This document shows, piece by piece, positions 58,119-59,758 of a stretch of 64,000 bases of DNA. The stretch is from Escherichia phage AV121. The notes beneath the pieces are model-generated. The model had not been told where the DNA came from. It did not search any database and worked only from the letters and a program-made list of their open reading frames with translations. The position numbers and the translations under genes are program-made. Each line of letters begins with the position of its first letter. The stretch's first letter is position 1. The DNA is taken from the sequence record OR352951.1. One strand, given 5' to 3'.

Positions 58119-58898
58119 TTAATTAAAAATATATACTTCATCAGTTCCATTCTTTTCTTTGGAATGATATATGTTAAAGACGTATTTTTTATTAAGATGC
58201 TTAACATTATATTTTTTAGACCATTCTTTAAGAAGAGTGTTTTCCTTTCCGTGATGCTCTAAAACATTCGACAGTCCAAATTTTATTCCTCTGTCATTTA
58301 AAGAATCTAAAAGATTTAAAAGGTCTTTTTCTTCTTCTTCTGACCAAAATTTATTATAATCAGCAACTGTTATAAGATATGGAGGGTCCACATATACAAA
58401 ATCGCCGTCTAGAATTTTGACATCTTTAAAATGCAATGAACTAAAGATTATTTTATCACAATTTTGTTTAAAGTGATTAAAGCGCTTTTCACTATTTTTG
58501 TTTATAGTTCTTTTTCCAAACGGAGTAGTAAAATTTCCTTTATCGTTTATACGAATCATATTACTAAACCCGTGAAAATGAAGAACATAAAGTAAAAGAG
58601 GATCTCTAGTTTTATTATAATCTTCACGTAATTTCAAAAACTCTTCTTTTGATGTTTTTGATAGTTTATATTGCTTTATTACTTTTAATACGTCATCCCA
58701 TGATACATTAATAAGACGCTTATACATTTCAATAATTGGTTCTTGAATATCATTGGCCAATACAGGACCATTGACGTTCAAAGACACGGATAAACCTCCA
58801 CAAAATAAATCCACGAATCTGTCATATTTTGGAAAATGAGGCTTAAGTTCAGGTAATAATGACTGTTTATTACCTGTATACGCGATAGCTCCTAGCAT
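58119..58898 (-). CDS. dam: DNA adenine methyltransferase Dam (GATC)
   Basis: 259 aa; motifs [11 protein letters not shown] and DPPY; matches remembered T4 Dam. Confidence 0.9.
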
Positions 58899-59458
58899 TA
58901 TATTCTCTCATTTATTGCAGCAAAAAACGAATTATATAATTCTTCATCATATGTATTTGATAGTAATACTAACACGTTTTGTGATTTAGCATATTCATTA
59001 AACCTTGCTTGGATAGTTGGATTATCAGTAAATGATTCTCTTTTTGTCCATTTATTACGTGGATAATATCCGCATGGCAAAAAATCTAATATCATCAATG
59101 ACACAGGGTTTTCAGTTTTTGTGTATTCTTTTAATTTCTCTTTATCTTCTAAATATATTCCAACCGAATCAATAGCTGTACCTCCACCAACTTGGTGTTT
59201 AATTTCAATTATATGCTTTTTACCGTTGCGAGAAATAACAATATCAAATCTTCTAGTACGCTTCTTAGTTATAAAATTAGAACAAAACAAATTATTTGAT
59301 TTTTCAGTATCATCGGTTAAAACCATTTTTTCTTGATAACTAACTGAACAATCAGTGAAATATTCTTTTACTTTATTAAGTATGAAATTTTCAACTACGG
59401 CAGATATTTTATATGAATCTCCGTTTAAAGCCATTTCATGCACAATTTTATTAATCAT
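58898..59458 (-). CDS. PD-(D/E)xK-motif protein (186 aa), putative nuclease, translationally coupled to dam
   Basis: Motif [21 protein letters not shown] (D...ExK about 12 residues apart); stop overlaps the dam ATG (TAATG); GAGGA Shine-Dalgarno. Confidence 0.5.
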
Positions 59459-59482
59459 TATATCATCCTCAGCAATTTATTT

Positions 59483-59513
59483 TATAATACCATAACAAGC
59501 TGAGAAAGTAAAC
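59483..59513 (-). promoter_or_regulatory. T4-type early promoter upstream of the 186-aa ORF
   Basis: ttataatacc...gtaaac. Confidence 0.4.
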
Positions 59514-59557
59514 AAATTTATGAAATTTGTGATAAATATTAATTTAAAGGAGGACAT

Positions 59558-59758
59558 ATGGCACAAAAATTAATGGCACTTGTTAATGCCATCAAAGGTA
59601 ATAAGAAACGTATAGCTTTTACTATTTCTGCTATGGTAGGAATTTTACTCTGGAACTTTATTTTATCACCAATTGCAATTGCGCATGGTGTTAATATTCC
59701 AGTAGTTACTCTTGATACATTCGTAGATCTAGCATTTGCTTTAGTTGGGTTAATTTAA
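59558..59758 (+). CDS. small hydrophobic protein (66 aa), opposite strand to neighbours
   Basis: Perfect AAGGAGG Shine-Dalgarno 5 nt before the ATG; late-promoter-like gATAAATAtt upstream; one or two predicted TM helices. Confidence 0.45.
   Translation: MAQKLMALVNAIKGNKKRIAFTISAMVGILLWNFILSPIAIAHGVNIPVVTLDTFVDLAFALVGLI

Follow-up and report, generated by a model that had tools for sequence, protein, structure and literature searches.

Type II restriction-modification pairs are already known as a kind of system, and the DpnII, MboI and LlaDCHI systems, in which the endonuclease gene adjoins the gene for a Dam-class (D12) GATC methylase, are the closest described relatives of the locus reported here. 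A lytic virus can carry both halves as well: Chlorella virus PBCV-1 encodes the GATC pair R.CviAI/M.CviAI, an early endonuclease together with a protecting adenine methylase. The Dam enzyme of bacteriophage T4 is among the best-studied DNA methyltransferases. The role of T4 Dam methylation was still called unknown in a 2015 paper (PMC4471564). We analyzed a stretch of 64 000 nucleotides (nt) from Escherichia phage AV121 (sequence record OR352951.1; the whole stretch is referred to as the window), in which dam is directly preceded by an open reading frame (ORF) for a putative PD-(D/E)xK endonuclease of 186 amino acids (aa). The window is part of a Tequatrovirus (T4-like) genome, and 1.2 kb at the locus are 100% identical to the corresponding region of, for example, vB_EcoM_G9062 and JK23. 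On balance we favor a reading, drawn from sequence, in which the phage would carry a type II-like restriction-modification pair made up of the 186-aa protein as endonuclease and T-even Dam as methylase.

Both genes lie on the minus strand. The first (58898–59458) encodes the 186-aa protein, a putative R subunit that resembles the DpnII core, and the second, dam (58119–58898), encodes a 259-aa D12-class GATC N6-adenine methyltransferase of the T2 type (Pfam PF02086, E 6.5e-51), the putative M subunit. The initial annotation had pointed to an overlap between the stop codon of the nuclease gene and the dam start codon, and this overlap exists: in the TAATG at 58900–58896 (minus strand) one base is common to both codons. 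A promoter scan placed a T4-type early promoter of the nuclease-dam operon at 59484–59513 on the minus strand (GTTTAC, a 17-nt spacer and a TG-extended TATTAT; a consensus match only), ∼25 nt 5′ of the nuclease ATG. The window Dam is ∼99% identical to T4 Dam, for which GATC specificity has been established, and matches T4 Dam in the solved structures 1YFJ and 1Q0S with an E-value of 1e-173. However, in contrast to the orphan T4 enzyme, it has a nuclease partner.

The 186-aa ORF is under strong purifying selection: among Tequatrovirus alleles the ratio of non-synonymous to synonymous substitution rates (dN/dS) is 0.03–0.04, with 9–16 synonymous versus 1–3 non-synonymous changes. The encoded protein matches PHROG 8706 over its full length and contains the PD-(D/E)xK core motif. 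The ORF coordinates and the motif of the initial annotation hold, and neither this ORF nor the divergent 66-aa ORF next to it (dam.1, described below) is a chance frame, as judged from dN/dS, from the matches to PHROG 8706 and PHROG 2024 and from the 692 phage records in which dam.1 was found. The AlphaFold2 model of the 186-aa protein is confident, with a predicted local distance difference test score (pLDDT) of 81.7 and a predicted template modeling score (pTM) of 0.79, and an independent database model of the orthologue from Dhakavirus MX01 superposes on it with a template modeling score of 0.92. The predicted core has the order alpha-beta-beta-beta-alpha-beta that defines the PD-(D/E)xK superfamily. 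Structure prediction had been proposed as a check on the motif, and E23, D72 and E85-x-K87 indeed lie on a PD-(D/E)xK fold: in the predicted structure E23 belongs to the first helix, a long one, D72 to strand 2 and E85-x-K87 to strand 3, which is the canonical order of restriction endonucleases. These four residues are invariant in eight sequences down to ∼31–37% identity; R69, K81, H82, H88, Q89, G93–S98 and D125 are further residues that do not vary in the family. Taken together, the model and the conserved residues support a true PD-(D/E)xK restriction-endonuclease fold. Among the MunI/EcoRI-class small type IIP enzymes, MunI agrees with the predicted protein in size and fold, but the sequences are 12% identical and the recognition sites presumably differ. 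An NCBIfam search gave nothing meaningful for the 186-aa protein, and the family profile matched no PDB sequence even at E 10.

In sequence, the only relatives outside the family that came into view are GATC restriction enzymes. Pfam DpnII is the top match for several family members (16.8 bits for the window protein, 17.7 and 22.5 bits for others), the remaining members having no match, and this region is also matched by the PADLOC REase_II model for type II endonucleases (best E-value 5e-6). When one family member was compared with 72 556 plasmids by tblastn, two matches only were obtained, both to the gene of the LlaDCHI (GATC) endonuclease and one of them on pSRQ700 (E 0.5). For a profile comparison we aligned 11 DpnII-family sequences, taken from plasmid genes and database proteins; hhalign placed residues 20–110 of the phage protein on residues 162–250 of LlaDCHI (65.8% probability, E 5.7e-5). 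In this register E23, D72 and E85 fall on E165, D210 and E225, which are invariant or nearly invariant in the DpnII family. The alignable core consists of E...D...E-x-(K/N) followed by a glycine-rich loop and reads RRFD-I-VI in the phage protein versus KRFD-F-xI...IETNxYxxGGSK in the DpnII enzymes. The 186-aa protein thus appears to be a divergent and minimal, remotely related counterpart of the DpnII/LlaDCHI catalytic core. The gene arrangement is similar to that of the DpnII systems in that the endonuclease gene adjoins the methylase gene. In contrast to them, the phage locus has one methylase instead of two and the order nuclease then methylase; it resides in a virulent phage whose DNA is modified, and the search of bacterial genomes gave no relative of the nuclease.

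The family is small. A HMMER profile search of 1.84 billion protein representatives together with word-indexed searches yielded about five full-length clusters, all from phages, and no relative was found among 185 579 species genomes of bacteria and archaea. Further collections added one locus from IMG/VR and three loci from metagenomes, by which one more divergent context was gained. Judged by these collections, the nuclease family is tiny and confined to phages. In Dhakavirus MX01 the nuclease is 64% identical to the window protein (global identity, also below) and the gene order is 61, dam.1, nuclease, dam, 56; the same order is found in the metagenomic T4-like phage L006 (57%). In the Klebsiella phages SmallBear and L034 (43%) the nuclease-dam pair lies between denB and ndd, in the metagenomic phage L004 (37%) the pair is followed by rIIA, and in L005 (36%) the nuclease gene is followed by dam before the contig ends. 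In six of six divergent contexts, which include three genomic neighborhoods, the nuclease stop overlaps or abuts the start of a T4-type Dam gene, and in all six a T4-style early promoter motif (GTTTAC...tgaTAyaAT) is located 25–35 nt 5′ of the nuclease ATG. In pairwise comparisons, identity between the nucleases varies with identity between their Dam partners (r 0.84), and the nuclease is the faster-evolving of the two. Adjacency and co-inheritance of the kind that mark type II restriction-modification systems are therefore both present, and these data support a translational and evolutionary coupling of the nuclease to Dam. The nuclease/methylase module, one of several possibilities that had been raised for the locus, is borne out by fold, overlap and co-divergence with Dam.

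The distribution of the pair within Tequatrovirus was determined from 503 phage records that matched a 1.2-kb query and were sampled evenly down the ranking. Both nuclease and dam are present in 148 of them (∼29%), ∼35 carry dam only (∼7%) and ∼320 carry neither gene (∼64%, for example T6, RB32 and RB68); in the latter, homology to the window begins just 5′ of dam.1. A nuclease without dam was found in none of the 503 records. Phage T4 belongs to the group with dam only. Alignment of the window with T4, T2, T6 and KarlGJung shows that T4 lacks the 548 bp at 58978–59525, between two copies of the 8-bp repeat TTTGTGAT (58978–58985 and 59526–59533), and with them the nuclease gene and its promoter. 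What is left in T4 is a 3′ remnant of the nuclease gene of ∼80 bp, with a 1-nt frameshift, next to the dam start. Remnant and repeat-bounded deletion together identify T4 as a deletion derivative instead of an empty ancestral site; the microhomology deletion that removed nuclease and promoter and left Dam as an orphan is the one step of the scenario below that can be read directly. An independent deletion of 371 bp occurred in KarlGJung (Bas37) between copies of the 8-bp repeat ATATCATC (59089–59096 and 59460–59467), so that the nuclease was deleted twice with dam being kept. Judging from these alignments, T4 Dam is a recently orphaned methylase whose orphan state results from the 548-bp deletion.

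In T2 the nuclease gene bears a frameshift which replaces the last 8 residues by 3 and gives a protein of 181 aa. The T2 dam record of 1988 (M22342) contains the nuclease gene, unannotated, and the T4 reference annotation NC_000866 leaves the pseudogene remnant unmarked. The window Dam has the T2-type residues P20, D26 and E188, at which T4 Dam has S20, N26 and D188. Methylation by T2 Dam is reportedly more complete than that by the T4 enzyme, as would be expected if selection on the latter was relaxed once T4 had lost the nuclease. The T2 dam paper of 1988 is said to describe an insertion of 536 bp that T2, compared with T4, has 5′ of dam. We rejected an insertion relative to T4, because T4 holds the nuclease remnant and the deletion is bounded by a repeat. 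The comparison with T4, T2, T6 and RB phages, which the initial annotation had suggested, also modifies its view of the region. Its statement that T4 has no gene between 61 and dam is right insofar as the full nuclease gene is replaced by the frameshifted remnant, but T4 does have an intact, unannotated dam.1. Likewise, of the proposed accessory insertion the accessory nature stands for the block of early promoter, nuclease and dam; dam.1, however, is part of the backbone, and the comparison with T4 reflects a deletion there. The accessory unit consists of early promoter, nuclease and dam, and phages either have or lack it as one block between gene 56 and dam.1.

How could such a pair operate? 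The early promoter would transcribe nuclease and dam as one message with coupled translation, and the pair would act early in infection. The nuclease, which is small and probably homodimeric like MunI, with a DpnII-type core, would cut duplex DNA at unmethylated GATC, and Dam would methylate GATC in the phage's own DNA and so protect it. The Chlorella virus pairs offer a parallel in gene content, as the virus encodes both a nuclease and an adenine methylase. In that case, however, the target is unmethylated host DNA, whereas the phage hosts are Dam+ and another target is needed. Since all recorded hosts are Dam+ enterobacteria, host DNA should already be protected, and within the infected cell exposure would be greatest for foreign DNA whose GATC sites are unmethylated. 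Co-infecting or superinfecting dam-less T-even relatives, phages such as the ∼64% of Tequatrovirus records without dam, may be the prime targets. The module might thus serve in conflicts between phages, behave as a selfish addiction pair, or both. With hosts that are Dam+, a nuclease that never occurs apart from a phage Dam suggests that DNA of the phage's own type is a substrate, and this directs attention to dam-less T-even competitors as its natural target. In the window (1–64000) GATC is the most depleted palindromic tetramer, with 80 sites observed versus 210.6 expected from trinucleotide frequencies (ratio 0.38); the next-lowest palindromic tetranucleotide is TCGA with a ratio of 0.65. 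This depletion is compatible with the idea of dam-less competitors. A more far-reaching proposal is that the enzyme evolved to cut GATC in hydroxymethylcytosine-containing DNA of the T-even type and serves T2-like phages as a weapon against their own dam-less relatives; we put this forward as a tentative and rather doubtful possibility.

Several observations weigh against the proposed restriction-modification pair. T-even DNA contains glucosyl-hydroxymethylcytosine, which blocks most type II enzymes, and if this modification also blocks the 186-aa nuclease, the phage would have no need of Dam for its own protection. In T4, GATC methylation is reported to be lower in glucosylated DNA than in the non-glucosylated forms (PMC4471564), which is awkward for an enzyme cutting such DNA, and suggests that glucosylation may block nuclease and methylase at the same sites. 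The GATC depletion is also compatible with the older MutH explanation of GATC avoidance in enterobacteriophages (Deschavanne and Radman 1991, cited in PMC4471564). The homology to DpnII is below threshold: no family member reaches the gathering threshold of Pfam PF04556 (23 bits), the hhalign probability is just 66%, and the HMMER profile search of the 1.84 billion representatives did not reach any DpnII member. Approximately 160 N-terminal residues of the DpnII enzymes are absent (186 aa versus 280–305 aa), and the phage family has E-x-K (E-I-K) and GGGTA where DpnII has an invariant E-x-N and the lysine of GGSK. Specificity could for these reasons differ from that of DpnII, and as the N-terminal half is missing and E-x-K replaces E-x-N/GGSK we do not file the protein as a DpnII-family member. 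The lack of nuclease-only genomes depends on few independent lineages. Finally, cleavage, GATC specificity and methylation sensitivity of the nuclease are properties that we infer from the sequence.

The presence/absence polymorphism could in principle be the work of a free-standing PD-(D/E)xK homing endonuclease that cuts the empty 56/dam.1 junction, with gene conversion copying the nuclease and dam hitch-hiking along; the T4 seg and mob genes spread by homing of this sort. Yet the same Dam partner is found in three unrelated neighborhoods, for which a site-specific homing enzyme would need three targets, and the occurrence of the pair in three insertion contexts argues against one homing site. 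Nuclease and Dam have diverged in parallel and their translation is coupled, the promoter motifs suggest early expression, the best relatives in sequence and fold are restriction enzymes, and repeated loss of the nuclease with dam being kept is the usual decay path of restriction-modification pairs. We consider homing quite improbable. The shortness of the protein compared with DpnII enzymes, the 181-aa allele of T2 with its C-terminal frameshift and the fact that T4 and Bas37 manage without a nuclease would be in line with a restriction-enzyme remnant that has lost catalysis or has a regulatory role, for instance as a DNA-binding protein that controls dam expression. The canonical catalytic residues, however, are all invariant in the family, purifying selection is very strong, and size and fold fit complete small type II enzymes such as MunI, so that a dead remnant seems very hard to credit.

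It is unlikely, yet deserves more weight, that the nuclease is active with a job independent of Dam, such as degrading cytosine-containing DNA of the host or of competitors, or repair or recombination, its linkage to dam being historical. The fold alone leaves the substrate unfixed: Foldseek matches of the 186-aa protein also include non-specific or structure-specific nucleases, namely Can2/Card1 nuclease domains, Bax1, Mus81 and RecU, and the copies in Klebsiella phages adjoin the DNA-degradation genes denB and ndd. Such a job would not explain why Dam is the constant immediate downstream gene across ∼31–37% identity and three contexts, why the sole sequence relatives detected are GATC restriction enzymes or why the nuclease is never found alone.

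The second ORF of the initial annotation, dam.1, encodes a small membrane protein of 66 aa on the plus strand (59558–59758) and lies outside the nuclease-dam module. It has a basic N-terminus with KGNKKR followed by one hydrophobic segment (residues ∼19–43, Kyte-Doolittle peak 2.0), is under purifying selection (dN/dS 0.08–0.30) and matches PHROG 2024. The AAGGAGG ribosome-binding site and the late-promoter-like box noticed before are both in place: the former is located at 59547–59553, 4 nt ahead of the ATG, and the latter, GATAAATA, at 59531–59538 on the plus strand (T4 late consensus TATAAATA). A NATAAATA box ∼10 nt 5′ of the ribosome-binding site is kept in Tequatrovirus, Mosigvirus, Gaprivervirus and Dhakavirus with constant spacing, as GATAAATA in the window, AATAAATA in T6 and ST0, CATAAATA in VR25 and a perfect TATAAATA in MX01. 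The gene is probably that of a conserved small membrane protein expressed late. T4 dam.1 is intact (L001 3239–3439, corresponding to 17738–17938 of NC_000866, where it is unannotated) and differs by 3 amino acids. The name dam.1 stems from the T6 record MH550421, although T6 has no dam. The gene is likewise present in RB32, which has neither nuclease nor dam, and lies between 56 and 61 in Mosigvirus ST0 and Gaprivervirus VR25, both of which also lack the pair. Its occurrence in such phages makes dam.1 part of the conserved backbone beside gene 61, not of the nuclease module. The two ORFs consequently do not form the two-gene cassette that had been proposed, and the idea of a membrane-protein partner fails as well because dam.1 is found in genera that lack dam and nuclease.

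Some variation of dam.1 was seen. VR25 has two tandem paralogues of 65 and 66 aa (L012 2495–2901), and the second type is the one that adjoins the nuclease gene in the metagenomic phage L008. In T6 the start codon is ATT (L016 1212–1226), and the T6 record starts the ORF at the internal Met6. A 1-nt frameshift in dam.1 of phage Shinka (L002) could be explained by a sequencing error or by a pseudogene.

The genes around the locus are T4 genes: soc, 56, dam, 61, 61.1, sp and dmd. The primase gene 61 (59755–60783, minus strand) converges with dam.1, the two overlapping by 4 nt. A hairpin at 59570–59595 on the minus strand (−12.4 kcal/mol, z −3.2), with an 11-bp stem followed by a T-run, is located 3′ of gene 61, ∼160 nt past its stop codon, and looks like a terminator for the primase transcript. 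As it overlaps codons 5–13 of dam.1 on the opposite strand, this stretch may bear dual constraint. Between soc and 56, where T4 has the homing endonuclease gene segF, the window shares with T6 a pair of small ORFs (69 and 64 aa; 57140–57540, minus strand). A different ORF of 118 aa is found at 60953–61309 in place of gene 61.2.

In the literature on dam.1, on the gene 5′ of T2 and T4 dam and on restriction encoded by T-even phages, we found no paper on either ORF. Both genes have been deposited in >150 genomes as ‘hypothetical protein’, and the record of phage Shinka reads ‘putative DpnII restriction endonuclease’; the advance made here is accordingly one of interpretation, not of sequence discovery. 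What is new is the carrier, a virulent phage with hypermodified DNA, the minimal enzyme and the implied status of T4 Dam as a recently orphaned methylase. Should the enzyme cut GATC in hydroxymethylcytosine DNA, this would explain why T-even phages carry Dam, why the nuclease never occurs without Dam despite Dam+ hosts and why genomes that type II restriction otherwise leaves untouched show such strong avoidance of GATC. If the 186-aa protein is an active GATC endonuclease, it would be a minimal relative of the DpnII family, for which the PDB sequence search gave no solved relative, and the locus would be a rare example of a virulent bacteriophage carrying both halves of a type II restriction-modification system. 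T-even Dam would then be the protective half of a phage restriction system of which the reference phage T4 has lost the other half, and the pair would provide a testable model of competition among closely related phages.
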